A DNA stretch of 32,000 nt, from the NCBI GenBank assembly GCA_964354495.1, contig CAYHAA010000004.1, positions 1-32,000 on the forward strand, read 5' to 3'. Within the stretch, counting starts at the first letter, position 1, and each line of letters begins with the position of its first letter. Position numbers and translations under genes: made by a program. This DNA is from an uncultured archaeon. GTDB lineage: Archaea > Asgardarchaeota > Thorarchaeia > Thorarchaeales > Thorarchaeaceae. Below are positions 1 to 18,148 of this stretch, piece by piece. Below the pieces are notes generated by a model. It was not told where the DNA came from, did no database searches, and was given only the letters and a program-made list of their open reading frames with translations.

Positions 1-550
1 AGATGGGCGGGGTTGTTTCCGACTATTCCCACTGAACGACCGTCGAAGCGGGCAAAGCCCACTAGCATGTTCCTTGCCCAGTGCTCACGGACCTCAAAGA
101 ACTCGCCGTTATCGACGAGCTTTCGCACAACATCACGCATGTCGTATGGTTTGTTGGGATCATCTGGAATCAGGTCATCGATTGACTCATCGACATCATC
201 AGGAGCATGACCAGTGTCGACTCGTGGGGGCTCCTCGAGGTTGTTCTGGGGGACATAACTGAGGAGAGTCTTGATCTGCTCGAAGCAGTGGTCCTCATCC
301 TCGCTCGCGAACTGCGCCACGCCGCTGACTGAGTTGTGGGTCATCGCTCCGCCGAGCTCCTCGAAGGTCACCTCCTCGCCCGTGACCGTTTTGATGACGT
401 CGGGACCGGTGATGAACATGTGGGAGATGCCCTTTACCATGATAGTAAAATCGGTGACAGCAGGACTATAGACTGCACCGCCAGCACAGGGACCCATGAT
501 TGCAGAGATCTGGGGGATGACTCCGCTAGCCAGGTGTTGTGTTCGAATAT
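1..550 (-). pseudogene. 5'-truncated second copy of the acyl-CoA carboxyltransferase gene; runs off the left window edge
   Basis: Colinear with 5682-6232 at offset 5681; sampled 60-nt blocks match 45, 43 and 54 of 60, mostly synonymous changes. Frame open from 530 to base 1 ([28 protein letters not shown]...). A 1-nt deletion in the Trp codon near 531 (acc tg gct agc vs acg tgg gca agc). Homology ends ~550, so ~150 N-terminal codons are missing. Confidence 0.85.
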
Positions 551-634
551 CCAACAGTAACTTATTTCGTTGGGGTATTCAGAACACCACTCAATAGTAC
601 AATCAATTATGTATTAAATAACAAATTAGTAAAG

Positions 635-642
635 TATATATA
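635..642 (+). promoter_or_regulatory. Candidate archaeal TATA box for the S8 protease gene
   Basis: TATATATA preceded by purine-rich AAAG (BRE-like), ~50 nt upstream of ATG 695. Confidence 0.45.
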
Positions 643-660
643 TGATAGAGGAGTATCATA

Positions 661-678
661 TTTGGGAATATTCCCAAA
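661..678. promoter_or_regulatory. Perfect 18-bp palindrome, candidate operator
   Basis: TTTGGGAAT|ATTCCCAAA between the TATA-like box and ATG 695. Confidence 0.55.
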
Positions 679-694
679 ATGGTAGTGAAGGTAG

Positions 695-2410
695 ATGAGA
701 AGCAAATATTCAGTCATAGTGATTTCTTTGTTGCTAACTGCAATCTTTGTTTTCCCCACGTTTGTGGCTTCGCAACAAGTACAGGACACAGAGATTCTCC
801 CTCCTGAAGTAATATCAAAATGCAACAGAGATCTAATATCCGAATTATCAATGAAAGATGGGACTTGCTACTATGATGTAATAGTAGCGTGCAATCCTAA
901 TGGTCCAGATGACTATGCAAATCGTTGTATTGGATTAGTTGATGATTTAGTGATTTCGAAGAATTGGAATAGATTCAATATCTTTCAAGGTAACCTGACA
1001 AAAGAGCAACTGTATGAAATTGCAGAACTCCCCTTTGTCAGACGTATGGACAATAATTCATTCGAAATTGCCGCTTGTATGAATTATGCGAAATCGTACG
1101 CAGATGTCACAACATTGCAGTATTACGTCCCTTCAATGGATGGTAATACTGATGGATCTTCATCCTATTCAAAAGATGATATTGTAATAGCTATTCTTGA
1201 TACAGGAATTCACAATAGTCATTATGATTTAGATGGAGGAAAAGTCATAGGGTGGGTTGACCTGATTGGTGATTTCTGGGGAACGAAGTATGACAATCCT
1301 TATGATGATAATGGGCATGGAACACATTGTGCAAGTATTGCCGCAGGATCTGGAGATGCAACTTATGGATATAGAGGTGTAGCACCGGGTGCAGCTCTAG
1401 TCGGTGTTAAAATGCTCAATTGGTTTGGCGGTAGTAGTAAAAGTATCGCGATTGATGCACTTGAATGGGTGGGGGATAACAAAGACACATATGGCATAGA
1501 TATCGCCAGCTGTTCATGGGGTTGGACTGACTATGGACAATATGACACCCTAGCACAAGCAGCCGACTCTTTAGCTCATGACGATGATGTTGTTGTTTGT
1601 GTGGCTGCAGGAAATGAGGGGCCATCATCAGATACAATACGGACTCCAGGTACAGCCAAATGGGTTATCACAGTTGGTAATGCAATAGATCCTGCAGAAG
1701 GTGGCTGGTCGCTAGCCTCTAGCTCAGGTAGAGGACCGTGTGATGATGACCGTACAAAACCAGATGTATTGGCACCTGGAACAGATATCAATGCTGCAAA
1801 AGCTGGCACATACAACGAGTATATTGAAAAGACAGGAACTTCAATGGCAACTCCATTCGTAGCAGGTTTAGCTGCAATCTTCCTTGATTACAACTCTGGA
1901 CTAGCAAGTGATACAGATAGTGATTTCAATCCAGACATAAAGCAACTTCTTATGGCTAGTGCAGTAGATGTTCCTGGCGACAGTGATCCGGGATTGGACG
2001 ATTTTTATGGAGCCGGACGGATAGATGCTCTGGATGCATACACCTTTCTAACGGGAGACATTTCCGAGTGGTATCAAGATGTCTATCTTGCCGCCTCATA
2101 CCAAGAGAAGACATGGAATTGGTACAACGAACCCATGTGGGTATGCGATGACGATTATGAAAGTGATTGGTACAAAGTGAATATGTACACTGACTGGTTT
2201 CTGTACGTTGGAGCTTATGGAGACCCTGACCTATTACTCAAAATACAAATCTACGATAAAAACCTCAATGTAGTAACAACATCTACGACTGGAAACGATA
2301 GAACTCTTGGATACTGGTCAACTTATACTGGCACGTACTATATCAGGATTTGGGGTCAAAGTCACACTGGAGACTACTATGACATTCAGATTATAACTAC
2401 AGCATCATAG
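695..2410 (+). CDS. Secreted subtilisin-like (S8) serine protease with propeptide and C-terminal PPC-like domain
   Basis: Hydrophobic N-terminal signal; catalytic motifs ILDTGI (Asp), DNGHGTHCASIAAG (His), AAGNEG (oxyanion Asn), GTSMATPFVAG (Ser); C-terminal DWYKV...IQIYDK...GTYYIRIWG pattern typical of PPC domains. Confidence 0.95.
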   Translation: MRSKYSVIVISLLLTAIFVFPTFVASQQVQDTEILPPEVISKCNRDLISELSMKDGTCYYDVIVACNPNGPDDYANRCIGLVDDLVISKNWNRFNIFQGNLTKEQLYEIAELPFVRRMDNNSFEIAACMNYAKSYADVTTLQYYVPSMDGNTDGSSSYSKDDIVIAILDTGIHNSHYDLDGGKVIGWVDLIGDFWGTKYDNPYDDNGHGTHCASIAAGSGDATYGYRGVAPGAALVGVKMLNWFGGSSKSIAIDALEWVGDNKDTYGIDIASCSWGWTDYGQYDTLAQAADSLAHDDDVVVCVAAGNEGPSSDTIRTPGTAKWVITVGNAIDPAEGGWSLASSSGRGPCDDDRTKPDVLAPGTDINAAKAGTYNEYIEKTGTSMATPFVAGLAAIFLDYNSGLASDTDSDFNPDIKQLLMASAVDVPGDSDPGLDDFYGAGRIDALDAYTFLTGDISEWYQDVYLAASYQEKTWNWYNEPMWVCDDDYESDWYKVNMYTDWFLYVGAYGDPDLLLKIQIYDKNLNVVTTSTTGNDRTLGYWSTYTGTYYIRIWGQSHTGDYYDIQIITTAS

Positions 2411-2494
2411 TGATATCGAATGAGGATAGTATGTAGATTTATGAATCTACATACTCTCTATTTTATTATTCAATGATTAGGTTATGTAACAACA

Positions 2495-2941
2495 ATGAGC
2501 GAGAGCGGGGATTCAGACATTTCCATAAAAGATGTGCAAGGAAATACATTGATAGTGTACTGGTTTTTACTAAAATCAGATGGAACACATAGTGCAAGAG
2601 AAATTCAACGAAAAACAGGCATCTCTAGTTCGAGCTTGGCTTTGCACCATCTAAATAAGCTAATTGAACTTGGTCTCGTGAAGAAAGATATTCATGGAGA
2701 ATACTCAGTAGCACGAAAAATCAACCTCGGTATCTTGAGCCTGTTTTCAGGAAAAGGTAAGATTTTTGTACCGAGATTCGTTTTCTACGCAGCTTTCAGC
2801 TCAGGGTTATTACTGTCTTCGATCTATCTGTTCTATTATCGCCTCAATACTGCGAGTGTTCTCTTGATTTCGTCACTGCTTGTCTTTAGTATTATTTTCT
2901 GGGTCGAAACACTGCGAATCTGGAGAAACCAACCGGTCTGA
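2495..2941 (+). CDS. Winged-HTH (ArsR-like) regulator with two C-terminal transmembrane helices
   Basis: SAREIQRKTGISSSSLALHHLNKLIELGLV...GEY wHTH pattern followed by two hydrophobic stretches. Confidence 0.8.
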   Translation: MSESGDSDISIKDVQGNTLIVYWFLLKSDGTHSAREIQRKTGISSSSLALHHLNKLIELGLVKKDIHGEYSVARKINLGILSLFSGKGKIFVPRFVFYAAFSSGLLLSSIYLFYYRLNTASVLLISSLLVFSIIFWVETLRIWRNQPV

Positions 2942-3023
2942 AAGTAGCTCACCTGTGCTCTGAAACTAGATTAAAGTTAGTTTGTGTCTATATAGTATAT
3001 ACCGAATAATTCGATGAGCGGCG

Positions 3024-4175
3024 ATGAAAATGACGAAATTTAGCGGTAGGATAATTGCAATCATTATCATGATCACGGTTGTCACATTTCTATTTTCAAG
3101 TGCTGTTGGATATGCATTAGATTCTTCCATTGAAAACAGATTTGTAGGAACTCCAATTGCTGAAACCACCTTTGCCAATTTATCTAGTGCAGAACCTGGT
3201 TCAGTGATGTTTCCAGGATCGGTAATCGAAGTATCGGAAGAGTTCATATCTATGAGAGTAAACTTCACAGAGTCAGAATTATGCAACCATACTGATGCCA
3301 GCTCATCAGCATTATTATTCATGAGCCAATTTGCATATCTTACACAATTGAATTTCACGCTTGATGAAGGTTGGACAAGATTAGAGTCGGGTAAATGGAC
3401 TCTCCGGTTCTACAGCCCTTCTGCTGATGTCTATGTTGGAGTGAACGCTTTTACATGTACAGTTCTTCGATTTGCTGTTCGATGGGTTGGTCCGTCCCCA
3501 TATGTGAGAGAAGTCGATAGTAGCATTTTGAGCATTAGTGAAGTTGAGCTTGCAGCTGCTCAGTTCCTTCTGCAAAACAATATTTCCCTCTCAATTCATT
3601 CTCAATACATTCCAGCTGTCTTAAAACACGATATCCAATACCTCACCCACAACGTCTTTGCAATTCGTTTCTTTGAGAGTATCAATAATACACTAATTGA
3701 GGGCAATGTAATTTCCATCATTCTTGACATCCTCACAGGAAATGTGGTTGACTTCAGTTATCAATGGGTCTATGTTGAGGGTATTCCAACAGAGGATATC
3801 ATCGACAATACTAGTGGTATCAATTATGCTCTGGCGTACATAGAACAGGAAAGTAATTCGGGAAATACAAGAGTTGCATATTCGATTCTTCTGTTCAAGG
3901 ATTTTGGTTCAGTTGAGTTGATGTCGTATTCACTCTGTCGGGCAATATACACCGATAACTCAGAATTTGGAGTTGTATATGTCAATGCCAAAAGTGGAGA
4001 GATAATTTCAACCCTCCAAACTGGGCTAATATCCGAATTTATCGAAAACACGAGACTCGATTTATTATCTCTAATCATGCCTGTTTCACTTACCATGATC
4101 TTTGCAATAGCAGCTTTCGCGATAACAAATCATCTTGTAAAGGAGGAGATGCCAGTAATAAAAAACTCAAGGTGA
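3024..4175 (+). CDS. Membrane-anchored exported protein with PepSY-like motifs
   Basis: N-terminal signal/TM and C-terminal TM; ILDILTGNVV and VYVNAKSGEII resemble the PepSY terminal motif; TATA-like TATATAG ~30 nt upstream. Confidence 0.6.
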   Translation: MKMTKFSGRIIAIIIMITVVTFLFSSAVGYALDSSIENRFVGTPIAETTFANLSSAEPGSVMFPGSVIEVSEEFISMRVNFTESELCNHTDASSSALLFMSQFAYLTQLNFTLDEGWTRLESGKWTLRFYSPSADVYVGVNAFTCTVLRFAVRWVGPSPYVREVDSSILSISEVELAAAQFLLQNNISLSIHSQYIPAVLKHDIQYLTHNVFAIRFFESINNTLIEGNVISIILDILTGNVVDFSYQWVYVEGIPTEDIIDNTSGINYALAYIEQESNSGNTRVAYSILLFKDFGSVELMSYSLCRAIYTDNSEFGVVYVNAKSGEIISTLQTGLISEFIENTRLDLLSLIMPVSLTMIFAIAAFAITNHLVKEEMPVIKNSR

Positions 4176-4199
4176 TACATAGATTGAAGGACACGAGAG

Positions 4200-4973
4200 A
4201 TGAGATTTGAAACATCTAATCAGTTGATAGAACAAATTACCAGAATTTCAAAAGAAGAAAAAATGGATAACTACTGCGAGTCAATTTATCTAGTTGGATC
4301 ATACTCTCGAGAAGAGTTTGACCACCTAAGTGATGTTGATCTTATTGTTATCGTACATAATGAAAGTGAATTACCATTTGTTCTTGAATTAGTGAAGATT
4401 ATTCAAGAATACATAGCACCATTTGATGTAATGTTGGATTCAAAGGTCTATACAGAACTCAGTTTTAATGATGCAAAAAAAGGGATTGATCATTTCTCAA
4501 TTTGGCTAAATATCGAAACAGGAATCTGTATTCTTGGCAACGAGATTCAGGTGAAATTGAATCCATCTTTAGTTATATCAGGATTATTGCATTGGATTGA
4601 TAGAGTGGAAGAATCGATAGTTATTCTTGAAAATCATTCCCAATTCGAGGGTTCATGTTTCGTACTATATTCAGCACTAGTCTGGATATTTTTCATTGAA
4701 AAATACCTTCTAGAAAGCAACAAAACAATATCGAAGAGGGAAACCTTGAATGTATACTTTGGTGATATGGAACCAATCGTTCGTGTTCATTACGATAGGA
4801 TAGTTCACAAAATAAGAAAGGAGTCACCGAATAGGTATCCAAAGAAGTTGCAGTTCAAGGAAAAGAAAACTTGGTCGGATGTATATTATTCAAATCTCAT
4901 CCAAAAAGCCAGAAAGATTCTTGAATATGGTAATGCAGTATATAGATCATTATCAGCGAAATACGATGTTTGA
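4200..4973 (+). CDS. Pol-beta-superfamily (minimal) nucleotidyltransferase domain plus unassigned helical C-terminal region
   Basis: YLVGSYSREEFDHLSDVDLIVIV = hG[GS]x9-13DhD signature; very AT-rich (27% GC in one sampled line). Confidence 0.75.
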   Translation: MRFETSNQLIEQITRISKEEKMDNYCESIYLVGSYSREEFDHLSDVDLIVIVHNESELPFVLELVKIIQEYIAPFDVMLDSKVYTELSFNDAKKGIDHFSIWLNIETGICILGNEIQVKLNPSLVISGLLHWIDRVEESIVILENHSQFEGSCFVLYSALVWIFFIEKYLLESNKTISKRETLNVYFGDMEPIVRVHYDRIVHKIRKESPNRYPKKLQFKEKKTWSDVYYSNLIQKARKILEYGNAVYRSLSAKYDV

Positions 4974-5122
4974 CATTATAGCTTGATACTACCTCCATCC
5001 CGAGAACGCATATGGTGTCATCGGTAACATACTCTCGATAAAGAATACTTCATCCTAAGTAAATGCAATGTCACACAAATTCCATAATTTCAGTAGGTGT
5101 GTAATCATTTTCGTGAACAAAA

Positions 5123-6676
5123 TTAAAGCGGGATGTTCCCATGCTTCTTTGGGGGTCGCGATTTCCTCTTGCTCGCCAGCATCTCAAGACCACTACATAT
5201 CGAGGGTCTGGTTTCATGTGGGAAGATGACCCTGTCAATGTAGCCAAGTCCTGCCGCAACATACGGGTTGGCGAACTTCTCGCGGTACTCCTTCACTAGC
5301 TCCGTGCGCTTCTTCTTTTTGTCCTTCGCTTCCTCGATCTCCTTGCGAAAGATGATGTTGATGGCGCCATCAGGCCCCATCACCGCAATCTCGGCTGACG
5401 GCCAGGCATAGACAAGGTCAGCATCGATATGTCTCGATGACATGACGTCGTAAGCACCCCCGTATCCCTTTCTTGTGATGATGGTGATCTTAGGGACGGT
5501 AGCCTCCGCAAATGCATAGAGAATCTTTGCGCCATGGCGAATGATACCGCCCCACTCTTGAGCTGTCCCCGGTAGATATCCAGGGACATCCATGAATGTG
5601 ATGACAGGGATGTTGAACGCGTCGCAGAATCGAACGAAGCGAGCACACTTGTCTGATGCATTGATGTCAATTGTGCCTGCTAGATGGGCGGGATTATTCC
5701 CAACAATTCCTACGGACCTGCCATCAAATCTGGCAAAACCCACCGTCATGTTCTTTGCCCAATGTTCGTGGACTTCAAAGAATTCTCCATTGTCAGCCAA
5801 CTTCTTAACGACATCGCGCATATCATACGGTTTGTTCGGATCATCCGGGACAATTCCGTCGATTGACTCATCAACGTCATTGGGTGCATGACCAGTATCG
5901 ACTCGAGGGGGTTCCTGAAGATTGTTCTGGGGGATGTAACTGAGAAGTGTCTTGATCTGCTCAAAACAGTGGTCCTCATCCTCGCTCGCAAATTGTGCGA
6001 CGCCACTGACGGAGTTGTGAGTCATTGCGCCGCCCAGCTCTTCAAAGGTGACCTCCTCTCCGGTCACTGTCTTGATGACCTCTGGACCCGTAATGAACAT
6101 GTGTGCTGTGCCCTTGACCATGAGCGTGAAGTCCGTGACTGCTGGGCTGTAGACAGCTCCACCCGCGCACGGCCCCATAATCGCCGAGATTTGAGGAATG
6201 ACCCCGCTTGCCCACGTATTGCGTTCGAACACAAAAGAATAATTTGCCAAACTCAAAATCGATTCTTGAATTCGGGCACCGCCGGAATCCAGTAGGCCAA
6301 TGACAGGAGCACCAGTTTGTATTGCAAGATCCATTATCTTGCAGATCTTTTCCCCATGCTTTTCTGAGAGCGAACCTCCAAAGACAGTGAAATCCTGACT
6401 AAAGATGAAAGCTTTTCTGCCAGCAATTGTGCCATAGCCGGAGATGACCCCATCGCCAAGAATGCGTTTTTTGTCCATGCCAAAATCTGGAACCCTACTG
6501 ATCACGAATTCATCAATCTCAACAAAGGATCCGGGGTCTAGAAGTTTGTCGATTCTCTCACGGGCGGTATATTTGCTCTGCTCGTGTTGCTTCTCAATTC
6601 GTTCTTTGCCGCCACCTAGTTTGGCTTGTTCACGCAATTTCCTGAGTTCCTCAAACTTATCATCACAACCAACCAT
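5123..6676 (-). CDS. pccB: Acyl-CoA (propionyl/methylmalonyl-CoA) carboxylase/decarboxylase carboxyltransferase subunit
   Basis: [50 protein letters not shown]-terminal KKHGNIPL; start moved to ATG 6676 (GGAG upstream). Confidence 0.93.
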
Positions 6677-6767
6677 TGACAAGCACACTCCAGTCTTTCA
6701 ATCAAATGTTTCAATCCATCATGGTTTTGAATGTTCTGCTATTTCAAATAGAGGTAGAGAGAAGTCT

Positions 6768-9700
6768 TCACGAGTCTGCATCATTGATTACCTTTTGAAT
6801 AGTACTAGATCTACGAGCTCTTCCAAAGTCTACCCACAGCAGCGGCCCGATTTGATTTACCTTAATTCCCTGTCTGTGATACTCCAGGATTCTCTTCTTT
6901 TCCTCCTTGCTGACCTTTGTGTGTTTCATGGATGCTATCATCATAATGAGTTCGCGTAGTCGAAAGAAACGATCAGCAGCATACTTAAACAAAGGTAATT
7001 CAGCTGCCATTCTCAATGATTCTTTCTTTGATATGACAATTCCGGTTCCTCCGTCCACAGAATCGATTCCAAGGAGAGATAGCAACGATTGGAAAAACTT
7101 CTTGTTGTGTTTTGTGCCTATACCTGCAGTCATATTGCGAACAGAGGCATATCCGTCCCCATCAGCAACGCCTTGCAGAATGGGCAGAATCATCTCATGA
7201 GGAATTTTGAGAACCCATTCTGCTCGAATGGATTGGTCTTCTTTTGCAGCGTCCATTCTCAAACCAAGTAGTGTGCTCCGTATCCACAGCAAGAATGGCG
7301 AAGCCGAGCTCAGCCAGTTCATCGTTTCGATGTCCTTTCCTGCTTTGTTCTTTCTTACGCGATTCTTGTTCCTCCAAGCCCTGAAACCTAGTATGCCAAG
7401 ACAGTAGCAGAAGGCCTCACCGAACGTTTCGCTCCAAGAATAGTTTGCACTTAATGAAATGCCAACAGTGGTGGAAATGCCATTCCGACGCACGAAGAAT
7501 CCATCCGAAATAATAGCTCCAAGCAGATACATGAAAGCAATGATTCTTGGGATTGCGCCAAAACGTTTTGTCCAGTCTTTCATTTTTCTTCCTTTCAGGG
7601 GTACAAGTTGATCTAGAACATACTTGATATCACTGATATCGCTGATAACTAGCGGAACTTGGATGAACCCATGTTGTTTTCCATTTTTTACTTTGAGCGC
7701 CACCCATCTATTGCCACTTTGGGGAGGAACTCTAGGAATAGATGAGGCGACTCCCACAAGTCTTGGAAAAATGTGTTCTAAGCGTCTTCTCTTTGCATTT
7801 GCCATGTTCAATCGCCCACGTTTGATGATATCTGTGTAGAGTCCCCCTTTCTCTAAGGCTTTAAGAAACTGAAAGAACTCCTTGGCGCGCACGTGGTCTT
7901 TCTTGTGGCTAGGGAGCAATTTCAGTGCGCCAAGTAAATAGAAAGTCCGCATCCGCTTCCTGTACTCCGTTAGACTGACAATCCCGTTGAGTTTCTGATG
8001 GATTGCCTTGAGTTCTCTCTTAGCCTCAGTGACCGACAATGCCCTCTCGAGCATATCGATTACCATAGGCAATGATATTCCTACAAGCCATTGATTCACA
8101 GTCTGTTGTGAAACGTCATGTCTTGCAGCAAAATCAACGATTTCCTTTCGTGTAACATGCTTTTGAGCCCCAAACTTGCGTCTTGCCAAGAAATACACTC
8201 GGACAACGTGAAGGAGCCGCTGATAATCGGACCGTTCCTTCAGCCATGGAAAATCACTATCAACGACTTTCTTGAACTCGGAATAGGAATCAATCACTTT
8301 GCTCCGCAATACTAGGGGACGGATCTTGACCCTGTACGTGGATCCCCTGTGCGACGTGTATCTCTCCGTCGGAGCCAACTTCCCTGTCTGCGCCAGCACA
8401 TGCCGGATGAGCCACGGAACCTCCCCAGCTGTGAACGCCCGCACGCGCCGCTTGGAGATGCCCGACCGCCGAGCGATGTCCTTCTGGGCCCCGCCGCGCT
8501 CCAGTTCGCCGAGGAAGGCGAAGAACTCTCTGACCCGCGCTTCCTTGCTCCGGTACTGGGCAATCCTCGTGTACGCACCATCGGGATAGAGAAGTTTCAA
8601 CCAGAGTTCGAGTTCAGACCACGTTCTGATGCCGCCTGCCCTCTTGACAATCTCGTTCAAGAGCCGGCGAGCCTCGCGCGCTGACATGCTCGACCCGACG
8701 ATCTTGAAGAGGTGGGGCACATGACCATACAGAACCCATTCGCGTGCAGTTGACTTCTTCAGGCCGAGCCGTGCCCCGATCGTATCGACCTCGAACTGAC
8801 GGACCGCGGTGCGCCCCCTGAGGGCATCCCTGAGCTCGAAGAACTTGCGCAGCTGCTCCAAGAGCGCAGGATAGTCGGAGCGCACAGAGACTCCGGGGTA
8901 GTAGCGCTCCAGCCACTTCTTGTAGCTCTCAAAGGAGCCAGCAGGTCGCTTTCCGCACATGGGTCGGTGAAGTCGGAGCGTGTACTCGCGCCCCCTGTGG
9001 TAGCCGGTCTTTCGCTTCTTCTTCACCCTCTGCTGTTGAGCAACCGGAGACCTCACTACCCCTGCAAGACCCCGCTCAAGCGACCGACGGGCAGCCTCAC
9101 CAACAACAGACGCCCATGCCCGCTCGACCTCAAGAGCCCGCAGCTCGCGGATGAGTCGAGGGACCTCTCCCTTCTTCTTGCTGCGGACGTACTGACGCGC
9201 ATCCTCCAAGTTCTGCCTGAAGTCGGGGCTCACCACTCTCGACCGCCATCGCCTTACGAGCGCCTCCAGTTCTTCCTCAGACTCGACCTCTCTCCGCACT
9301 GACTCCTTGAACCGCTCACGCTCCTCCTCGGTGAGCCTCGCAAACAACTCCCTGAGCCGCTCACGAGTGCGTTCTTCCTCCTCTCGCTCGCGGTCCTCCT
9401 CGGTCTCGGGGAAGTACGGGCGTGGTTCCAGAGAGTGGTCGATGTGCCGCTCCCCGGTCATGGCGTCGATGATGACCCGAGGCTCGTTGACCTCTTGCTC
9501 CTCAAGCACATCCAACTCCTCCAGCAGCTCCTCGACTCTCCTGATGATCTCCTCGGGAACCTCGACCGACTCCTCGCCAGCCTCCCCAGCGTCAGAGACC
9601 TCCCCGGACTCCTCGGGCCCGACCTCCATGCCGCTATCCGAGGTCTCCTCTACCTCGGCCGAGTCCTGCTCGACCGCGTCTTCGCTCTCCTCAGGAACTG

Positions 9701-10574
9701 ACTCCGTGGTCTCTGGAACAGGCTCTTCGATGGGCTCCGTTACCTCCTCGGAAGCGACTTCGGAAGCAGGCGAGAGGGTCTCCTCGACCTCAGATGGCAC
9801 GCTCGCAGTCTTCTGCTTGTGCTCACTCTCGGACTCCTCTGTGCAGTCCTCTAGACCAACATCCTCTTCCCTCGATGACTTCGCTCGACCCTCGGTGGCC
9901 TCTGAGGGAACCACGGTCTCTCCAGGCTCTTCGACCTCCGCATGTTCCGGGCGGGTGATGGAGTTCCTGACCTTCACCGACTCGTCGGATTCAACCACTT
10001 CAGATGTAGCCTCAGGGATCTGTGGAGCCTCTCGATGCTCCTCTTCTTCCACTTCCTCGGTTTCAGCCTCGACCTCGCTCTGCGCATGACCCTCAGATGG
10101 ACCACCGGTCTCGACCACATAGACTGTACCGTCACCGCCCTCGATATACGACGGAGTGGACTCTTCGGTCTCTGAGGTCTCTCCATCGCGGTCAGGCTCT
10201 GAGGACTCATCCTTGGTTTCCTTGAGAGAGGGACCGTCCAGCTGGCTCTCCATGTCATTGATGAAGTCCTCATGAAGCTCCTCTCGGGCATGATCAAGTG
10301 CATCCCCGAGCTCATCCTCGACCTCTCGCAGCTCCTCGGACGCCTCTCGCGCAATCTCCTGGGATCTGTCCTGCTGGGACTCGAACTCTTCAAGTTCCTC
10401 GAGGGATTCCTTCACTATCTTTTCGACGGACTCCTTGTGCTCCAGCTCCCGGAAGACCCCATCAAGGACTTCCCTGATCCGTTCAGACCGTTCCTCCTTC
10501 TCGAGGATTTCGTCGCGCTCCCTGTTCTCACGAGGTGTCCATCGCCTGCGATGTTCGGAGAACTCAGAAGGCAA
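6768..10574 (-). CDS. 1268-aa protein: acidic low-complexity N-terminus, tandem HTH-like repeats, two-motif LAGLIDADG domain, C-terminal HTH-like segment
   Basis: LAGLIDADG motif 1 YLLGAIISDG (~7500-7535) and motif 2 ILQGVADGDG (~7150-7185); 216-aa internal duplication (8939-8385 vs 8291-7745); TTG start 4 nt after the upstream stop. Confidence 0.85.
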   Translation of the reverse strand: MPSEFSEHRRRWTPRENRERDEILEKEERSERIREVLDGVFRELEHKESVEKIVKESLEELEEFESQQDRSQEIAREASEELREVEDELGDALDHAREELHEDFINDMESQLDGPSLKETKDESSEPDRDGETSETEESTPSYIEGGDGTVYVVETGGPSEGHAQSEVEAETEEVEEEEHREAPQIPEATSEVVESDESVKVRNSITRPEHAEVEEPGETVVPSEATEGRAKSSREEDVGLEDCTEESESEHKQKTASVPSEVEETLSPASEVASEEVTEPIEEPVPETTESVPEESEDAVEQDSAEVEETSDSGMEVGPEESGEVSDAGEAGEESVEVPEEIIRRVEELLEELDVLEEQEVNEPRVIIDAMTGERHIDHSLEPRPYFPETEEDREREEEERTRERLRELFARLTEEERERFKESVRREVESEEELEALVRRWRSRVVSPDFRQNLEDARQYVRSKKKGEVPRLIRELRALEVERAWASVVGEAARRSLERGLAGVVRSPVAQQQRVKKKRKTGYHRGREYTLRLHRPMCGKRPAGSFESYKKWLERYYPGVSVRSDYPALLEQLRKFFELRDALRGRTAVRQFEVDTIGARLGLKKSTAREWVLYGHVPHLFKIVGSSMSAREARRLLNEIVKRAGGIRTWSELELWLKLLYPDGAYTRIAQYRSKEARVREFFAFLGELERGGAQKDIARRSGISKRRVRAFTAGEVPWLIRHVLAQTGKLAPTERYTSHRGSTYRVKIRPLVLRSKVIDSYSEFKKVVDSDFPWLKERSDYQRLLHVVRVYFLARRKFGAQKHVTRKEIVDFAARHDVSQQTVNQWLVGISLPMVIDMLERALSVTEAKRELKAIHQKLNGIVSLTEYRKRMRTFYLLGALKLLPSHKKDHVRAKEFFQFLKALEKGGLYTDIIKRGRLNMANAKRRRLEHIFPRLVGVASSIPRVPPQSGNRWVALKVKNGKQHGFIQVPLVISDISDIKYVLDQLVPLKGRKMKDWTKRFGAIPRIIAFMYLLGAIISDGFFVRRNGISTTVGISLSANYSWSETFGEAFCYCLGILGFRAWRNKNRVRKNKAGKDIETMNWLSSASPFLLWIRSTLLGLRMDAAKEDQSIRAEWVLKIPHEMILPILQGVADGDGYASVRNMTAGIGTKHNKKFFQSLLSLLGIDSVDGGTGIVISKKESLRMAAELPLFKYAADRFFRLRELIMMIASMKHTKVSKEEKKRILEYHRQGIKVNQIGPLLWVDFGRARRSSTIQKVINDADS

Positions 10575-10578
10575 TCCC

Positions 10579-11367
10579 CTACCCCCGCCCTATCATCTTT
10601 GACTGGACTTCAATGAAGATCTTCCTCCAGACGACATCGTCTTCTGGAATTCCATGGGCGGTCCGGGCATAGTGAAGGAGAGAACCAGAGACCTCGGTAA
10701 GGGCGCAGTCCGGGCTCGCGATCTTTCTCGAGAAGATCTCGACCAGACGTAGGAGGGGACCAACATCGCCAGTCACGGCCTTCTCCATGCGCTCCAAGTA
10801 CTTCGCTGCGAACTCTTCTGTTCTGACGACACTATCGATTGTCCTAGAGAAACGGCTTTCGGGATTGAAGGGGATGGCGGCGGCAGCGAGGCTCCGTTGG
10901 GGGCGCTGCGTGAATTCTGCAATGCCTCGTTTCACAGCCTGTGAGATGAGAGCACCGGTCTTCACCTCGTCGACCCTGACTGATTTTGTTCTTCTGGCAC
11001 ACTCGATGTCCAATTGCCTGTGCAGGGTTTCGAGGTCAGACCTCAGGAAGCCCTTCTTGTCTGAGATCAGTCCTGCTAGGTCAGCGACAATCGAGCTCAC
11101 CACCTCCTTGGGCATGGGATTGCCATTGTGAGTATACGACCGGAGAAGACGGAGACAGCAGAGAGGGAGGGTTGTCTCGGTGTCTGTGGCAAGGCGAGCC
11201 ACCGCACGGATGATGAGAGCGACCAAGAGGGAGCTGCCGCTCCGAGTCACATCTGTGAGCACTTCTTGCATACCCCGAAAGGTATGATGCTCACCGATCA
11301 TGTGTGCTCGCACCATGCTCATGATATCCGGTTCTATTGACGGGACTGATCGGTCAGACATCGCCAT
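10579..11367 (-). CDS. Hypothetical alpha-helical protein, likely co-transcribed with the LAGLIDADG gene
   Basis: 262-codon ORF with protein-like composition ending 4 nt before the next start; no motif recognised. Confidence 0.7.
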   Translation of the reverse strand: MAMSDRSVPSIEPDIMSMVRAHMIGEHHTFRGMQEVLTDVTRSGSSLLVALIIRAVARLATDTETTLPLCCLRLLRSYTHNGNPMPKEVVSSIVADLAGLISDKKGFLRSDLETLHRQLDIECARRTKSVRVDEVKTGALISQAVKRGIAEFTQRPQRSLAAAAIPFNPESRFSRTIDSVVRTEEFAAKYLERMEKAVTGDVGPLLRLVEIFSRKIASPDCALTEVSGSLLHYARTAHGIPEDDVVWRKIFIEVQSKMIGRG

Positions 11368-11465
11368 GTCACAATGAACATTGCGTGCACATCAGACCTA
11401 ATCCTTTGTCAAAGCATTAGAAGTCCGTTATCATGCACGCACACGGAGGAAGAAGGCTTCTTCAT

Positions 11466-11504
11466 CTCTCGAGCGGCCAAACGAAGCCTATTCGCGCTCG
11501 AGAG
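11466..11504. repeat. 10-bp inverted repeat with 19-nt spacer
   Basis: CTCTCGAGCG ... CGCTCGAGAG, with an inner CGAA/TTCG stem. Confidence 0.6.
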
Positions 11505-11729
11505 CGATGTTCCAGTGTGCATGTTGACCTTCTGTTGTGTATCAGGGTACCATACTGCAAATACACCTGTACACTACTCTCATCTTACAAGAGGAGGCGC
11601 CCTCTTCGAAGGGGTGCGGTCTGAACACACCCGAATAGATGCCACTCTTAATGTACACGAAACCGAAACGATAGGACATTGGAAAGTTTAATATCAATGG
11701 ATGGCAATGCCGCATATTGAGGGTATCTC

Positions 11730-12230
11730 GTGGGCAATAATCAAGAAGGCAGATTCTTCTCTGCTCCAGTGATTGTCGTCTTTGTCTTGTTCCTTGTTGT
11801 GCTAATCAGTCCTGCAATAGTATCGTACCATGAGTCCTATCAGGTCTATACCTCGATCACATGGGTCATCAGATTTGAGGAGGGAGAGCCCCTCCAGGCC
11901 TATCTTACGCTCGACCAAGTCTTTGCCTTCCACAGATACCTCTTCAAATACATCTTCCTCTGGATGATCTATAGATACTATCGAAATCGGACAACTCTAG
12001 CACGGGCTCTTTCAGTCGGGATCATCTCTGAGGCCCAACTCTTTGTGTACAATAATCTTGGAACGATCATCAATGATCTGCTTATTCCCGGCGGTCGTAG
12101 CTACTATGACATTCCCCTCCCATTTGCTCTCATCTCATTTCTGATTCTCGCGGTTCTCATTCATCGACCACAATCGGAAACGAATCTACCAAGTGAGGAG
12201 TGGCTTGAGAGAAACAAGAGTCAAGAATGA
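11730..12230 (+). CDS. Hypothetical membrane protein (3-4 TM)
   Basis: GTG start, several hydrophobic segments, charged C-terminal tail. Confidence 0.7.
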   Translation: MGNNQEGRFFSAPVIVVFVLFLVVLISPAIVSYHESYQVYTSITWVIRFEEGEPLQAYLTLDQVFAFHRYLFKYIFLWMIYRYYRNRTTLARALSVGIISEAQLFVYNNLGTIINDLLIPGGRSYYDIPLPFALISFLILAVLIHRPQSETNLPSEEWLERNKSQE

Positions 12231-12424
12231 AACAGACCACTATGCGTCATAAGTGACTATTTGCAGAGGCTCCTAACATTCTGCCGTGTGCATCTTGTGT
12301 TCCCCGTTTTTACCTTCTCTGTGATTTTTAGTGTTTTTTCTCGTTCCTCGCTTCAACTGGAATGAGATGCGTCTTGGTATTTTAACTCATCCAAGACGGG
12401 TATCTGAATATTACGAAAAAGAAG

Positions 12425-12586
12425 TCACGGGGAATAGATATTCAGAGCAAGAGTCTTGCAGAGCTGCTCTGCCCGTGTAAGATCACCCTCTCGCATGCAG
12501 TCCATGACCTCGTCAAGTTCATTTCTGTCGAGTGACTTCCTGAACAGGTCTACATACAATGCCCTTTCCTCTGCATCCAGTGTCAC
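12425..12586 (-). CDS. Small 53-aa helical protein, below the ORF-track cutoff
   Basis: GTG overlaps the TGA of the upstream gene (GTGA overlap); translates to MTLDAEERALYVDLFRKSLDRNELDEVMDCMREGDLTRAEQLCKTLALNIYSP. Confidence 0.65.
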   Translation of the reverse strand: MTLDAEERALYVDLFRKSLDRNELDEVMDCMREGDLTRAEQLCKTLALNIYSP

Positions 12587-13317
12587 TGCCCTCGCCTTCC
12601 CGTTGTGCTGGCATTTGATACGTTCCCCTCGCGGAAGATGTTCAACCAGACCTTACTGACCATGGCGCCACTGCACCTGCAAGTCAAAGCAATATCCTTC
12701 TGCGCGACCTGTACTACATTCTGCGAGGGCTGCATCTGGATTGCGCCATAGACGGCAGCCGCAGCAAGGACATCCGGATCGTAGGATGCTCGTTGTGCAT
12801 CTGTTAGTGACCCGACCATCGAGATGGCCTCGGCCTGCACACTCACAAACCACTCGGCAGTCCGCGACGTTCTTTCCTCAAGGGCATTTTGAAGAGAGTC
12901 AATGATCTCCTTGACAAGGTCTGCTGGAACCTCGCTCGACATCCGGATACACCCGACCCGATGACTTTGAATCTTCACACGTCGGTCAAAGAGTACTCGG
13001 TAAGCCTCGTTGGTCGCGCAAGGGGTGATGCCAAGGCTCTTACAGAGGAATGGAGTCGTAACCTGGACCCGAGTTCTGCTTTCGAACACCAAAAAGGACT
13101 GATAGATCGCAGCTGCAGCTACAATCTCCGGTCTGCGCCTTGACACTTGAACATTCTTGAGACATGCAATGCTCTGTTGAGCATGCTCCTCAATTTCAGA
13201 CAGCCATTGGTCAAGTTGTCGACGCACCTCTTCCTTCATGCTACCTAAGAGGACTGACATCGATTGCGAAACCATATCCCTCTCGACTGCCATTCTCATG
13301 CTGGACATTGATGCCAA
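12583..13317 (-). CDS. TFIIB/TFB-like two-repeat cyclin-fold protein lacking the N-terminal zinc ribbon
   Basis: RRPEIVAAAAIY and YDPDVLAAAAVY match the two TFB cyclin-repeat helices; terminal QKDIALTCRCSGAMVSKVW resembles the TFB C-terminal HTH; no CxxC ribbon; start uncertain. Confidence 0.7.
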   Translation of the reverse strand: MASMSSMRMAVERDMVSQSMSVLLGSMKEEVRRQLDQWLSEIEEHAQQSIACLKNVQVSRRRPEIVAAAAIYQSFLVFESRTRVQVTTPFLCKSLGITPCATNEAYRVLFDRRVKIQSHRVGCIRMSSEVPADLVKEIIDSLQNALEERTSRTAEWFVSVQAEAISMVGSLTDAQRASYDPDVLAAAAVYGAIQMQPSQNVVQVAQKDIALTCRCSGAMVSKVWLNIFREGNVSNASTTGRRGQ

Positions 13318-13442
13318 TTGTGCTCTACTCCACGAACATCTTATGCACGATACTAGTTAGTTGTTTACTTCATGCACGATACGGCGTACTTAGGCTATAA
13401 TTGACAATTAAAGAGCAATGATTTCTATAGGCATCCAATTCG

Positions 13443-13467
13443 AGTGTCATTGAACTTTAATGACACT
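13443..13467. promoter_or_regulatory. 9-7-9 inverted repeat in a divergent intergenic region
   Basis: AGTGTCATT gaacttt AATGACACT. Confidence 0.5.
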
Positions 13468-13882
13468 GAAAGAAAATATGAGCCAAGATTGCTCTTGACA
13501 CGAGTACCAAAGTGCAATCCAAAGGTAGTGAAGTCCGGAGTTCAACCTTTTTTTCTATCTTCTGTCTTCAATCTGCTTCATCGTTCAAATTCATCCCTGC
13601 TTCCCGTATGGATTGTCTTGGGTCTTGTCACGAAACCTTGTTCTGCTCAGAGAGTAGTCGGAATTCCATCGGGTCTGGGTCCTGGAAATGCAGCTCCATG
13701 ATTGGCTTCAAATCAGTAGAGGATAGTTGCAGCCGCCCTTTGCTGGTTCGAGGATACGACATCTATCATGTCAGTGTTAAGAGAGGTTGAAACCAACTTT
13801 CAGAAGGCACGCCAAACAAATCAATCCATCCGCAATTGCAATATATGTAGATGCTTGCACACTGAACGCCAAGGTGCTGCAA

Positions 13883-14443
13883 TTGAACAAATACTGCGCT
13901 ATCTGTCTGTGGCTAGCAATAGTACTTGTTGGAGCGTTCGGACTTGTCTATGGCTCACTCGGAGCACTTGCAGTCGGACTCACAGGTGCTATACCGGGTT
14001 CTGGACTTCCTCCATACTTGCCTCTTGGTATTGGAGGTCTTCTGTTTCTACTCGGACTGTATATGCTAGTAGCAACCCTTAGAAAAGACTCATTGATGAA
14101 ACGAATCATCGGCGTTGCAAGTTCATATGAAAAGATCACAATTGATGATATCAGTAGACAGTCTGGCGTCAAGATTCCCAGAGTTCGACCTCTGCTTTTT
14201 GAGGCTATTTCAGAGGGCAAGATAGAGGGAACTGTCAAAGAGAATATGTTCGTGAGAGAAAAGGCAATGCCAGGCGAAACTGTGAGAGTCGAACGAGAGG
14301 TTATGATCACTCGAAAAGCCCCAGATGCATGTTTCAGATGCGGAGCCTCACTGAATCCGAAGGAAGTAGAGTGGGTAGGTCCAGACCAGGTTCGATGTCC
14401 GCACTGCGGTGCAACAATGGCCGTTGAAACTGAGCGTGTTTAG
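13883..14443 (+). CDS. Membrane protein: 2 TM + PCI-like winged helix + C4 zinc ribbon
   Basis: TTG start with AGGTG SD upstream (track start 13787 likely too long); YEKITIDDISRQSGV...AISEGKIEGTV; CFRC...CPHC. Confidence 0.75.
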   Translation: MNKYCAICLWLAIVLVGAFGLVYGSLGALAVGLTGAIPGSGLPPYLPLGIGGLLFLLGLYMLVATLRKDSLMKRIIGVASSYEKITIDDISRQSGVKIPRVRPLLFEAISEGKIEGTVKENMFVREKAMPGETVRVEREVMITRKAPDACFRCGASLNPKEVEWVGPDQVRCPHCGATMAVETERV

Positions 14444-14445
14444 TT

Positions 14446-14477
14446 GATGGAGGGAAGTCAGGACTTCCCTCACCATC
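14446..14477 (+). terminator. Strong hairpin immediately after the stop codon
   Basis: GAGGGAAGTC ag GACTTCCCTC, extendable by GATG/CATC. Confidence 0.45.
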
Positions 14478-14755
14478 TATTCCCTTCGAGAGTGTGTTCT
14501 CTCCTCTTGATTATAGATGAAGCATATGCTCATAGATTGACATTGCTCTACGCTATCTGGAAAAAAAAGAGTCTGTTCTTGGAGTTGCAAGATGCTGCAA
14601 GCCATGTACGAAACTTGCTGTGGAATTGGCAGTCGACACGACTCGGTGAGGTCAGTGTTTGTGTCGTGTCAACCCCAAGGTTTTATTCCAAGACACGACA
14701 TGTAGGTACCTGTCCAGCACCGCCAGATTTCACGGAAACGATGAGTACCTGCAGT

Positions 14756-14887
14756 CTTCTGAAATGGATAAGAAGAGGATTGGACCAAGTCCTGCTTCAT
14801 CATTGGAGAGCTATGTCATGACTCATGACCTTATCGTTGTCGGTGGAGGACCGCCTGGCGCCGCATGTGCGAGAAGAGCAGCACAGC
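14756..14887 (+). pseudogene. Remnant 5' copy (upstream region + first ~23 codons) of the geranylgeranyl reductase gene
   Basis: Gap-free match to 16779-16910, 106/132 identical; encodes MTHDLIVVGGGPPGAACARRAAQ, then diverges and stops at 14925. Confidence 0.85.
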
Positions 14888-15085
14888 AAGCAACTAAAAC
14901 CTGCAGATGCCCGGCTCAAGACTGAAGAGGAATAGAGAACTCACTTCAATCATCGTGCATGACAGCCTGCTTTCTTCTTCTGAAACAGACACTCCTTCAG
15001 AAAGATTCACTTTCCTGTTGCGTTGAAACTTGGTCTTATATTAGCTAATACTGCTGTTGGTTTCGAGTGAGGAGGAAATTCAGGT

Positions 15086-16654
15086 TTGAAGTCAGCTGGA
15101 GAAGTAGCAACTCTGATACTATTCACTTACATCCTGGTTAGCATTCCATTGAATTCAACCTTCAATGTAGCAGCATTTGTGATGAATTCGACACATTCTG
15201 AGAGTCCTTCGTCCATATCCATTGAATTCATGACATATTTAGGCGGAGATGGCGAGGACTGGTTAGCTGATGTCTGCTTTGACAGCCAGGGGAATGTGTG
15301 GGTTCTGGGATATACTGAGTCTGTAGACCTTCCTCTTGTTCAGGCGATTCAAGAGTCTTATGGAGGGGCAGGTGATGCAATAATTGCCAAGTTCTCATCG
15401 CAGTATGGTCTTGAGTTCTGTACCTACTTTGGAGGAGATGGTGTAGACTATGCAATGGCGGTTGAGATAGATAATAATGGTGATATTGTTGTTGTTGGAC
15501 ACACCGAGTCATCTGATTTCCCAGTGCTTAATGAAATTCAGTCAAACCTCAATGGCACAAGCGATGCCTTCATTTCGAAATTCGCTCCAAATGGATCCCT
15601 TCTTTTCTCCACATATTTCGGTGGTTCAGGAACAGAGAATGTTGAAGCATTGTGTTTCGACAGTGCAGGCAATTATATACTAGCCGGAGCAACAGGGTCG
15701 ACAGATCTGCCAGTTACCGAAGGTGTGATTCAGAACACCTACGGCGGAGGGCTGACCGATGCAATGCTGGTGTCCTTTGCGTCTGATGGACAGTCAATCG
15801 GATTTTGTTCTTTCTTTGGAGGAAATGGTGATGATTATGCAATCGGCATGGTGCTTGATACAGTGGGCAATATTCACATCACGGGTATAGTGAGTGATAA
15901 TGATACCGTTTCAGTGAATGCCTTCCAGAAGGAGTATGGAGGAGGGTTGTCTGATGCATTTGTAGCCAAACTGAATTCAAACTGTGATTCCCTGATCTGG
16001 TGCTCGCTACTGGGCGGAAATGGATGGGAATTCGCAGGCAAAATCAACCTCGACTCGGAGGGCAGTATCATCATTTCTGGATACACAGGTTCCACTGATT
16101 TTCCCCTTATGAACGAGCTCATGGGAAATAAAGGTGGCAATGATGCGTTCTTATGCAAATTGACAGATAATGGAACCAATATTCTATTTAGTTCCTACAT
16201 CGGAGGAGGGATGGAAGATCGTAGCTACGGGCTTGGAGTGTTTCCTGATGACTCTGTGGTTCTCTTATGTCAGGCGCACTCAGCGGACTTCCCGGTGACA
16301 AATCCCTTGCAGGCTGAGAATAAAGGGAGTGTTGATGGATATCTACTAATTCTCAATGCTAATGATGAGATGGTCTTTGGATCGTATTTTGGAGGAAGTC
16401 TGGGCGATTATCCAGTGGGTCTTGATGTAATGGGGAACTCTACAGTTGTATTCACTGGTTACTCATCATCCAGTGACCTTCCCTTGGTAAAACCTACTCA
16501 GTCCATCAAGGCGGAAGACACAGATGGTTTTCTCTGCATCATCATACGCACAGACACTTCAACAATTGCTGATTCCATGATTTTGATAATCATTGGCATG
16601 GTGGTCGTCGCTGCAATCGTGGCAGTTATCGCTGTTATACAGAGAAGGAAATAG
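15086..16654 (+). CDS. Cell-surface seven-bladed beta-propeller (SBBP-type repeats) with C-terminal TM anchor
   Basis: Seven TY[LF]GG.G.D...D..G....GxT.S.D[FL]P repeats; N-terminal signal; C-terminal TM followed by QRRK; GAGGAGG SD before TTG. Confidence 0.88.
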   Translation: MKSAGEVATLILFTYILVSIPLNSTFNVAAFVMNSTHSESPSSISIEFMTYLGGDGEDWLADVCFDSQGNVWVLGYTESVDLPLVQAIQESYGGAGDAIIAKFSSQYGLEFCTYFGGDGVDYAMAVEIDNNGDIVVVGHTESSDFPVLNEIQSNLNGTSDAFISKFAPNGSLLFSTYFGGSGTENVEALCFDSAGNYILAGATGSTDLPVTEGVIQNTYGGGLTDAMLVSFASDGQSIGFCSFFGGNGDDYAIGMVLDTVGNIHITGIVSDNDTVSVNAFQKEYGGGLSDAFVAKLNSNCDSLIWCSLLGGNGWEFAGKINLDSEGSIIISGYTGSTDFPLMNELMGNKGGNDAFLCKLTDNGTNILFSSYIGGGMEDRSYGLGVFPDDSVVLLCQAHSADFPVTNPLQAENKGSVDGYLLILNANDEMVFGSYFGGSLGDYPVGLDVMGNSTVVFTGYSSSSDLPLVKPTQSIKAEDTDGFLCIIIRTDTSTIADSMILIIIGMVVVAAIVAVIAVIQRRK

Positions 16655-16840
16655 AATTCCAAATGATTGAAATGAAGCAACTTCTGGTCGACTGGCTTTA
16701 ATTAGCAATCTTCACTCGAAATGCAATGATTCTTCCACAATCAATGGGGTCTGACTCTCAACGCTAACATTCCACTTGCTTCTGAAATGGATAAAAGGAG
16801 GATTGAACCAAGTTTCGAATCGCTATTGGAGAGAGCTGCA

Positions 16841-18046
16841 ATGACTCATGATTTGATTGTTGTCGGTGGCGGACCAGCAGGCGCTGCATGTGCGAGAAGA
16901 GCGGCACAGCGTGGACTTGACGTAGTTGTTATTGAGAAGGCTGTGCATCCTCGCAGGAAAGCTTGCGGCGGCGGATTCAGACCGGGGCTTCTTGACCTGT
17001 TGGACTTCGATGCTAGCCCAGCTCTGGATAGGGAGTCGTGCGGGTCACATCTATTCTCACCTTCACGAACAAAGGTCGTAGCAACAAAAGACATGATAAC
17101 GGGATATCTGGTCAGACGTGAGGTGTTTGACAAGTTACTGCTGGATAAGGCGAAGGAGGCTGGAGCTGAGGTCATCTCAGAAGTCGAAGTCATCAATGTC
17201 ACGGAATCTGCAGAAGACGTCGTTGCTCATCAGGCAGACGGAGGAAGCGTCAGGGGAAAGTACCTCGTCGGAGCGGATGGCGTCAATAGTAGAGTGGCCA
17301 GAAGTTCGGGTCTGAAACCGCATTGGAGAGATGACGAGATTGGTTTGTGTTTTGAGGCACGGGTTCCGATGGACGAGTCTGACATTGTCAGGATAACAAA
17401 GGGGCCATATGCCCGAGACCTCTTCTGCATCCAGATCTATTTCGGCGGCATTGAACATGGATATGCGTGGTGTTTTCCCAAGAAAAGAGAGGTCTCCCTT
17501 GGAATGGGATGCCTGATGCCATATGCAGCAGATCTCAAGAGAGCATGGACCAGATTCACTTCTGAGTTCAGCAAGATGTATGAGGTCAATGTTGACCTCA
17601 GCGAAGCAACTGCTATGAGAGTTCCCCTCAAAGAACCTGCTGATAGGACTGTGACCAAGCGTATTCTGCTTGCTGGAGATGCTGGAGGCTTTGTCTCAGC
17701 TGCAACAGGCGAAGGTATGTGCTATGCAATCGAAACAGGCCAGATTGCTGGAGAAACAGTCAATGACCTCATTCAGCGGCGTGCAAATGATACGACCGCG
17801 TACGAGCAAAGATGGAAGAAGACAATCGGCAAAGAGCTCAAGGTTTCAAAGTTTCTGGCGAACCTCTTGTTCAACTCTGAGAAGAACATGGAGCTAGCTG
17901 TTCAGATGGCAGCCCGGGATGAGGTGATGCGAAGCCACATGACTGACCTGATCGGGGGTCTGAAACCCTATTCAGACGTGCGGACTGCGTTGATGAAGCG
18001 CGTCCTCACTCGCCATCCCTCAACAGGTCTGAAAATGCTAGTTTAG
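16841..18046 (+). CDS. Geranylgeranyl reductase family FAD-dependent oxidoreductase
   Basis: DLIVVGGGPAG, PRRKACGGG, YAWCFP, LAGDAGGFVSAATGEGM; start set at MTHDL (16787 is possible). Confidence 0.92.
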   Translation: MTHDLIVVGGGPAGAACARRAAQRGLDVVVIEKAVHPRRKACGGGFRPGLLDLLDFDASPALDRESCGSHLFSPSRTKVVATKDMITGYLVRREVFDKLLLDKAKEAGAEVISEVEVINVTESAEDVVAHQADGGSVRGKYLVGADGVNSRVARSSGLKPHWRDDEIGLCFEARVPMDESDIVRITKGPYARDLFCIQIYFGGIEHGYAWCFPKKREVSLGMGCLMPYAADLKRAWTRFTSEFSKMYEVNVDLSEATAMRVPLKEPADRTVTKRILLAGDAGGFVSAATGEGMCYAIETGQIAGETVNDLIQRRANDTTAYEQRWKKTIGKELKVSKFLANLLFNSEKNMELAVQMAARDEVMRSHMTDLIGGLKPYSDVRTALMKRVLTRHPSTGLKMLV

Positions 18047-18148
18047 ATGTCCTGAGGAGGAAGTCACGGGAAATTGAGTGGCCCCGTGTGCACTGCTCGA
18101 TTTTTGGTATAGTCGTAAATCGCTCATAGAGCACTGCAAGCGATACTG

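Follow-up and report, generated by a model that had tools for sequence, protein, structure and literature searches.

How does a housekeeping gene come to be trailed by diverged copies of its own 3' end, with unrelated genes lying between them? The question is raised by the first 32 kb of contig C4 (CAYHAA010000004.1) from an uncultured archaeon of the Thorarchaeaceae within the Asgardarchaeota (GenBank assembly GCA_964354495.1), a stretch of 32,000 nucleotides that was analyzed as a whole and is called the window here. It holds an intact gene for an acyl-CoA carboxyltransferase (CT) and a displaced part of a second CT copy, which a first-pass annotation had taken for the two ends of a cargo block acquired, together with a foreign allele, by homeologous recombination. 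The genome under study is designated G000, while other G numbers denote the genomes and L numbers the loci compared with it (L125 is G007:C278); G000 is a metagenome bin of 51 contigs and is 97.7% complete.

According to our analysis, the 3' side of CT may well be a reusable insertion hotspot, where a break at a fixed site is followed by homologous repair from a donor that bears an insert, in the manner of homing; we favor this reading tentatively. In each event, a foreign tract consisting of a working CT gene, or gene end, and cargo was placed beside the resident gene, which was severed at one of a small number of fixed positions, its 3' remainder being pushed downstream, and the repetition of such events built an array.

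The carboxyltransferase gene and its displaced end

Features of the locus are given by window position unless contig C10 is named (GC, G+C content; GC3, GC at third codon positions).

5123-6688, minus strand: intact CT gene, 521 aa (open frame; PF01039 matched over its full length)
1-562, minus strand: 5' part of fragment f1, the 3' portion of CT (codons ~147/149-335), GC 0.56, recognized by nucleotide and amino acid identity to the intact gene
C10:109402-110015: remainder of f1, to codon 521 and the stop codon (55-nt exact contig overlap)
531-532, minus strand: 1-nt deletion relative to the intact allele, ~25 nt inside the 5' edge of f1 (alignment and translation)
557-562, minus strand: junction between the end of cargo 1 and the start of f1, Ser148/Tyr149, the recurrent site x445, shared with fragments of unrelated flanks
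6244-6245, minus strand: equivalent of x445 in the intact CT (nt 444/445), computed from alignments
5364, minus strand: equivalent in the intact CT of the second recurrent site (nt ~1325), where f3, G004_f2, G014_f2, and L114_F2 start
6768-10574, minus strand: LAGLIDADG-like gene, 1268 aa, directly upstream of CT, with GC3 passing from ~0.75 to ~0.45 near 8330

The intact protein belongs to the Carboxyl_trans family, PF01039 being matched with 645.8 bits over model positions 1-493 of 493; TIGR01117 (mmdA) gave 831 bits, which is under the model cutoff. The CT fragments match PF01039 in its C-terminal part only. An exact protein look-up returned no record for the intact CT protein.

The diverged repeat reported in the first pass is a direct repeat of window positions 1-547 and 5682-6229, with 78% nucleotide identity and the gene on the minus strand, and the f1 protein shares 90-91% identity with the intact CT over residues 159/160-521 of the latter. 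The contig could be extended leftward, as had been proposed, since the last 55 nt of contig C10 equal window positions 1-55; in the resulting C10-C4 join, f1 is one open frame of 370 codons, collinear with CT residues ~150-521 and closed by its own stop codon. The 1-nt deletion noted earlier at the 5' edge of the fragment was found again, and it shifts the frame of the first ~9 homologous codons of f1. The abrupt fall in GC was likewise confirmed, from 0.56 to 0.36 past window ~550-555, but the edge of the homology, which had been set at 550, is moved by closer alleles to ~559-562, at codon Tyr149. Upstream of this point lies AT-rich cargo with an in-frame stop, and residues 1-148 of the enzyme are absent from f1. 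Only four wetland runs contained small shares, and their reads cover the CT-like parts and the upstream gene at 95-99% identity and leave the cargo uncovered, which is too little to weigh.

Fixed junctions and variable borders

CT fragments with unrelated upstream DNA start at the same place. Those designated G000_f1, G011_f3, L114_F1, the L122/L142 type, G067, and G058 begin at or within a few nucleotides of the TAC codon of Tyr149, and at least six unrelated fragments start within ~10 nt of the boundary between codons 148 and 149. By our own arithmetic, the chance that five more breakpoints fall within +/-10 nt of a first one in a gene of 1566 nt is ~4e-10. The starts of f1, L122, G058, G015_f2, and G005_f were taken from alignments, automatic X-drop mapping having mis-anchored them. 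The boundary is also reached from the other side in G007, where a 3'-truncated CT copy ends at the 148/149 bond, and the contigs of G049 and L122 break there. A second cluster of starts lies at nt ~1319-1334 (the four fragments listed above), and further fragments start at nt ~505, 575-589, 1030-1050, 1191, 1350-1410, and 1440-1475. Independent elements have used the same site and the target gene was restored, the frame of the intact CT being open.

Contigs of these organisms tend to break at insertion sites. The truncated copy of G007 (L125, 714-1166) ends exactly at codon 148/149; a HEAT-repeat gene comes next, in convergent orientation, and the 3' end of the LAGLIDADG-like gene lies directly upstream of the copy. 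No complete CT was found in G007, which is 87% complete.

A near-identical element also adjoins different alleles. Over the 2.6-3.5 kb upstream of the junction, loci L122, L123, and L124 are identical but for 1-2 bases, the shared stretch being made up of a CT 3' part, a leucine-rich repeat (LRR) gene, and a gene for a 554-aa protein. The fragments adjoining this stretch differ from 11 nt past the junction, with a synonymous divergence (dS) of 0.23-0.71, and the DNA past their stop codons is diverged or unrelated; the L123 and L124 fragments share ~750 nt and then diverge. Across ten compared contigs, two allele types were present close to the junction, with more variation at a greater distance from it. 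An old CT end, 60% identical and covering residues 462-521, lies at L142:2149-2328, flanked by the LRR gene and the gene for the 554-aa protein; the widely shared element is therefore composite, two earlier cassettes having come to move as one.

The borders of the converted DNA are variable. L114 and its sister G005 are ~95% identical as far as a point 95 nt ahead of the CT start, past which the whole intact CT of L114 is foreign (63-80%), and fragment L114_F1 is 89% identical to the CT gene of G005, with a ratio of nonsynonymous to synonymous divergence (dN/dS) of 0.009. L144 equals L142 for at least 84 nt to the left of the site, though their fragments differ, and the upstream fragment of the L138 type departs from the L142 element over its initial ~250 nt only, a right-hand tract. 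A fixed junction is thus found together with variable co-conversion of the flanks, which is what homing leaves, the left border in G000 (~8330) being taken from GC3 only. The switch in GC3 near 8330, considered with the GC-rich f1, suggests an incoming tract of ~555-8330. The event is one of a series, and it probably brought in more than a gene end, namely, cargo 1, the intact CT in its entirety, and a 3' portion of the LAGLIDADG-like gene. No full-length protein was found that joins other 5' gene parts to the same element end at 99% identity or more.

Upstream of CT, the region of window ~10575-26000 (3791-18273 in the joined coordinates J') is variable too, and ~14 kb separate CT from the conserved upstream genes that adjoin it in most relatives. 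A second diverged duplication of a gene end is present in the window at 14756-14887 and 16779-16910 (132 nt, 80% identity, 2023 nt apart), with a gene between the repeats, a footprint of the same kind as that at CT.

A stack of gene ends from different lineages

Besides the rest of f1, contig C10 carries four or five further 5'-truncated CT copies:

C10:107972-108346: f2, CT residues 398-520
C10:105413-105661: f3, CT residues 440-521
C10:102385-103431: f4, CT residues 174-521
C10:101273-101410: f5, CT residues 477-521
C10:95571-95660: f6 (weak), CT residues 478-507

The layout described in the first pass (intact gene, cargo, displaced 5'-truncated gene end) therefore holds, but the fragment then thought to be single is one of five or six. 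The array reads intact gene, cargo 1, f1, cargo 2, f2, cargo 3, f3, cargo 4, f4, f5, and possibly f6, and in every copy the CT homology ends at the stop codon. Cargo 2 holds a Fic/DOC protein, cargo 3 two proteins without a family match, and cargo 4 AbiEi and AbiEii; the genes of cargo 1 are the following:

563-5122, plus strand: cargo 1, GC 0.385 (Pfam and PADLOC matches; alignment consensus)
695-2410: S8 subtilase-like protein
2495-2941: winged helix-turn-helix (HTH) protein
3024-4175: membrane protein with N- and C-terminal hydrophobic segments
4200-4973: nucleotidyltransferase

The fragments are 85-94% identical to the intact enzyme at the protein level. Compared with the intact gene, they show a proportion of synonymous differences (pS) of 0.60-0.75, which is saturated, and of nonsynonymous differences (pN) of 0.03-0.07, with dN/dS of 0.02-0.06 and no stop codons in the long fragments. 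For f1 the synonymous sites are saturated and dN/dS is ~0.03, in agreement with the earlier remark that the changes are mostly synonymous and the copies of different lineages. Such saturation at so low a dN/dS indicates that the fragments were working gene ends of different lineages and not local duplicates; they diverged as functional genes in separate lineages and were joined recently. A tree of CT copies, of the kind that the first pass had advised, places G015_f2 and the intact CT of G015 in different clades (support 100/97): the G015 fragments belong to another clade, and the intact gene matches that of the sister genome G034. Stops occur in several of the older short fragments of relatives, and the database fragment P0077 is changed at residues kept by the other copies, and thus fragments decay once displaced. 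In public records, CT fragments are labelled as partial or short carboxyltransferases (349-379 aa).

The architecture is widespread, with at least seven genomes of the same genus showing it. The best named relative is a metagenome-assembled genome of Candidatus Thorarchaeota. An intact CT with one to three fragments behind it on a single contig was found in G004, G005, G014, G015, and G039 and three CT fragments in a row in G011, and G067, of another genus, has the same layout. In the sister lineage of G005 (L114-L121), the gene and four fragments lie on the eight contigs shown, out of 14, from different samples. The count of independent metagenome contigs with the architecture runs from 8 to at least 24, and a second element type, which has the gene for the 554-aa protein, is represented in 37 index blocks. 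Neither the G000 nor the L122 junction was matched in metagenome pattern scans. L114 and L138 carry the same cassettes (DUF7387-HicA; HTH-235 aa-~530 aa; tetratricopeptide repeat [TPR]-HEAT) in different order, and the cassettes are therefore inserted or shuffled independently.

Proposed homing-like repair, its candidate nuclease, and the rival explanations

The homing-like reading would run as follows. A site-specific break would be made in an uninterrupted CT allele, for example at the boundary of codons 148 and 149, and would be repaired by homologous recombination from a donor already carrying the insert; the right-hand junction would thus be fixed, and the length of co-converted flank could vary on either side. 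Such a break with donor repair would therefore yield a fixed junction and variable conversion without an integrase. The nearest described process is intronless homing by the free-standing homing endonucleases of T4-like phages (SegF/SegG, mobE) (PMC2988022, PMC2790892). There, a nuclease gene lies beside a conserved gene, as a candidate nuclease gene does at some CT loci, and the break in the naive allele is fixed, as is proposed for CT; in both, the co-converted flank is variable, and no integrase takes part. The CT insert differs in carrying kilobases of cargo and a replacement gene end; moreover, at CT the remainder of the cut gene is kept as a trailing fragment, arrays grow, and the host is an archaeal chromosome, and the nuclease, with its activity and target, is putative.

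The prime suspect for the break is the putative LAGLIDADG-like nuclease family, a role that is unproven. A LAGLIDADG-like gene or its remnant lies upstream of CT in G000, G014, G007, and G003, and LAGLIDADG_3 is matched above the 22.5-bit Pfam cutoff by the G014 orthologue (33 bits) and the G007 remnant (25 bits). The closest relatives of the 1268-aa protein of G000 are in G012 for residues 1-507 (63%) and in G007 for residues 1122-1266 (62%); given these differing relatives of its two ends and the switch in GC3, the gene is probably recombinant. A PDB sequence search with the candidate nuclease returned nothing. It is possible, and we regard it as doubtful, that the giant modular LAGLIDADG-like nucleases of Thorarchaeota, which are putative, drive a cargo-carrying form of homing: conserved sites in a housekeeping gene would be cut in naive genomes, and repair would copy in a resistant gene end, or the whole gene, with defence and accessory cargo.

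Other enzymes were considered. G000 has two small serine recombinases and 16 TnpB-like matches, none of them at the CT locus. A TnpB guide aimed at CT was rejected, the 15-18 nt matches elsewhere in the genome being of chance number; the one guide match adjacent to a TnpB remnant coincides with the beginning of a signal-peptide open reading frame, and the one on C17 lies inside a tnpB frame. The CT array was found to contain no TnpB gene, guide-like matches did not exceed chance, and an Rfam search gave the 23S end only. The 383-aa cargo protein was dismissed as a hidden recombinase, as it has 14 homologues only and its hydrophobic N- and C-terminal segments give it the look of a surface protein. 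Another possible recombinase, the 554-aa protein encoded by the L122 element, has no family match and has a paralogue elsewhere in G000. Neither a recombinase nor a nuclease family was detected in cargo 1.

Several points weigh against the homing-like reading. The fragments have at least six to nine different start positions, so that several specificities would be required; near the L122-type junction only two alleles occur, so that a single contrast speaks for independent insertion at that point; the left border at 8330 is drawn from composition, and the G000 junctions are those of the assembly. As for the nuclease, the LAGLIDADG_3 match of the 1268-aa protein of G000 is weak (17 bits) and under the Pfam cutoff, the gene lies upstream of CT in only 4 of ~22 loci and is absent from the L114- and L122-type loci, the fold model of its C terminus (pLDDT, the predicted local distance difference test score, of 35) is unusable, and for every nuclease considered here cleavage activity and target are predictions from sequence.

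Conservative site-specific integration is, in our view, rather unlikely. Non-autonomous elements would each bring a replacement CT 3' end and enter by an attachment site, with a recombinase supplied in trans by a virus, a plasmid, or an unrecognised family, and tandem accretion would build the array. Integrative elements that restore their target gene and accrete in tandem are well established, such as ICESt1/CIME at the 3' end of fda in Streptococcus thermophilus, islands at guaA, and additive islands at tRNA genes. In these, as at CT, the element replaces the end of the target gene, the displaced end stays downstream, and successive insertions give an array. The fixed junction positions would suit such a process, as would the L122 contig, which begins exactly at the junction nucleotide in the upstream copy, fitting a left end at the same site, and has the 5-6 nt ACTGC/TACTGC at both ends; tyrosine recombinases do exist elsewhere in G011 and G015, on contigs other than the array, and the serine recombinases of G000 have been mentioned. 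However, gene-restoring elements depend on an integrase of the tyrosine or serine type and on a short core of identical sequence, with one site per family, whereas the CT array has no integrase, no clear core, and several sites in one gene, the replaced part amounts to up to 72% of the gene or the whole of it, and the flanks are converted. No tyrosine or serine recombinase family was found among the scanned cargo proteins of G000, its relatives, and the metagenome loci. The earlier statement that no integrase is visible extends beyond the window: PF00589 (Phage_integrase) has no match anywhere in G000, where this search detected no Xer-type recombinase either, nor in G004, G005, and G014, which also bear arrays, while all 14 control genomes were matched. 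No identical core longer than ~6-7 nt is shared by the two ends in G000, where only TTCGAAC (7 nt) was found near the sites, and in L122 only ACTGC. Nor does integration account for the foreign tract of L114, which begins 95 nt upstream of the gene and not at the site, for the identity of L144 and L142 over at least 84 nt left of the site despite their differing fragments, or for the mismatch gradient of L138, which resembles a conversion tract. The absence of an integrase points to an insertion mechanism that has not been described.

We deem it improbable that homologous recombination alone produced the pattern, a few ancient illegitimate junctions having been spread by double crossover or Campbell-type events with CT and a fragment as homology arms. 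This generalizes the idea of the first pass, of which the foreign lineage and the layout stand. It would fit the mosaic fragments (L123 and L124, alike over ~750 nt), the mismatch gradient of L138, the apparent transfer of whole arrays (the G015 fragments against an intact gene matching G034), and the different cassette orders of L114 and L138. What it leaves unexplained is the use of the same codon boundary by unrelated fragments across species and genera: junctions at one bond have unrelated upstream DNA and occur on alleles of different lineages and genera, and inheritance of one junction is therefore no explanation. L114_F1 belongs to the G005/G004 allele type from the very first nucleotides onward, and the alleles beside the near-identical element diverge 11 nt past the junction, which is too short for a crossover and therefore counts against this alternative, as it does against random homeologous recombination. 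The spread of inherited junctions by homologous recombination alone is less likely than homing-like repair.

An assembly chimera of two strains or a functional paralogue, the two refuters named in the first pass, is very improbable: although G000 is a fragmented bin with a contig break inside f1, and long fragments keep open frames, the layout was assembled independently in many metagenomes and species, which rules out a chimera as a general explanation, the fragment-cargo and cargo-gene junctions lie within one contig, and f1 begins at AT-rich cargo with its in-frame stop and not at a gene start, lacks residues 1-148, and has the 1-nt deletion on its 5' side, older fragments of its kind being in decay (stop codons; the changes in P0077).

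Arrays of displaced C-terminal ends are also known for polymorphic toxins and type VI secretion system effectors (Rhs/CdiA orphans), and sequential displacement is described in Vibrio cholerae (PMC5361080). They resemble the CT array in that successive displacement has left, behind a full gene, a row of 5'-truncated orphan ends with separate downstream genes for each. Their ends, however, are different toxins with cognate immunity genes, whereas those at CT are the same part of a conserved enzyme (dN/dS ~0.03) with unrelated cargo; divergent toxin ends and immunity genes do not characterize the CT fragments.

The component kinds are known, namely, gene-restoring insertion, tandem accretion, intronless homing, and C-terminal displacement. 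In the literature, we found no account of a housekeeping gene of an Asgard archaeon that is used at several well-defined positions and replaced in part or in full, with arrays of as many as six displaced ends and no recombinase. Little is known of the routes by which accessory and defence genes reach Asgard genomes, in which integrases are seldom found. The CT locus offers a testable case across the family, in which foreign DNA has landed repeatedly at defined nucleotides of a housekeeping gene that has a candidate nuclease as its neighbor and no recombinase that could be recognised. Its fragments are a dated stack of past alleles that can be used to reconstruct gene flow between lineages. If cargo-carrying homing were true, it would provide an integrase-free route to Asgard defence islands, and the succession of invasions could be read from the gene ends left behind.

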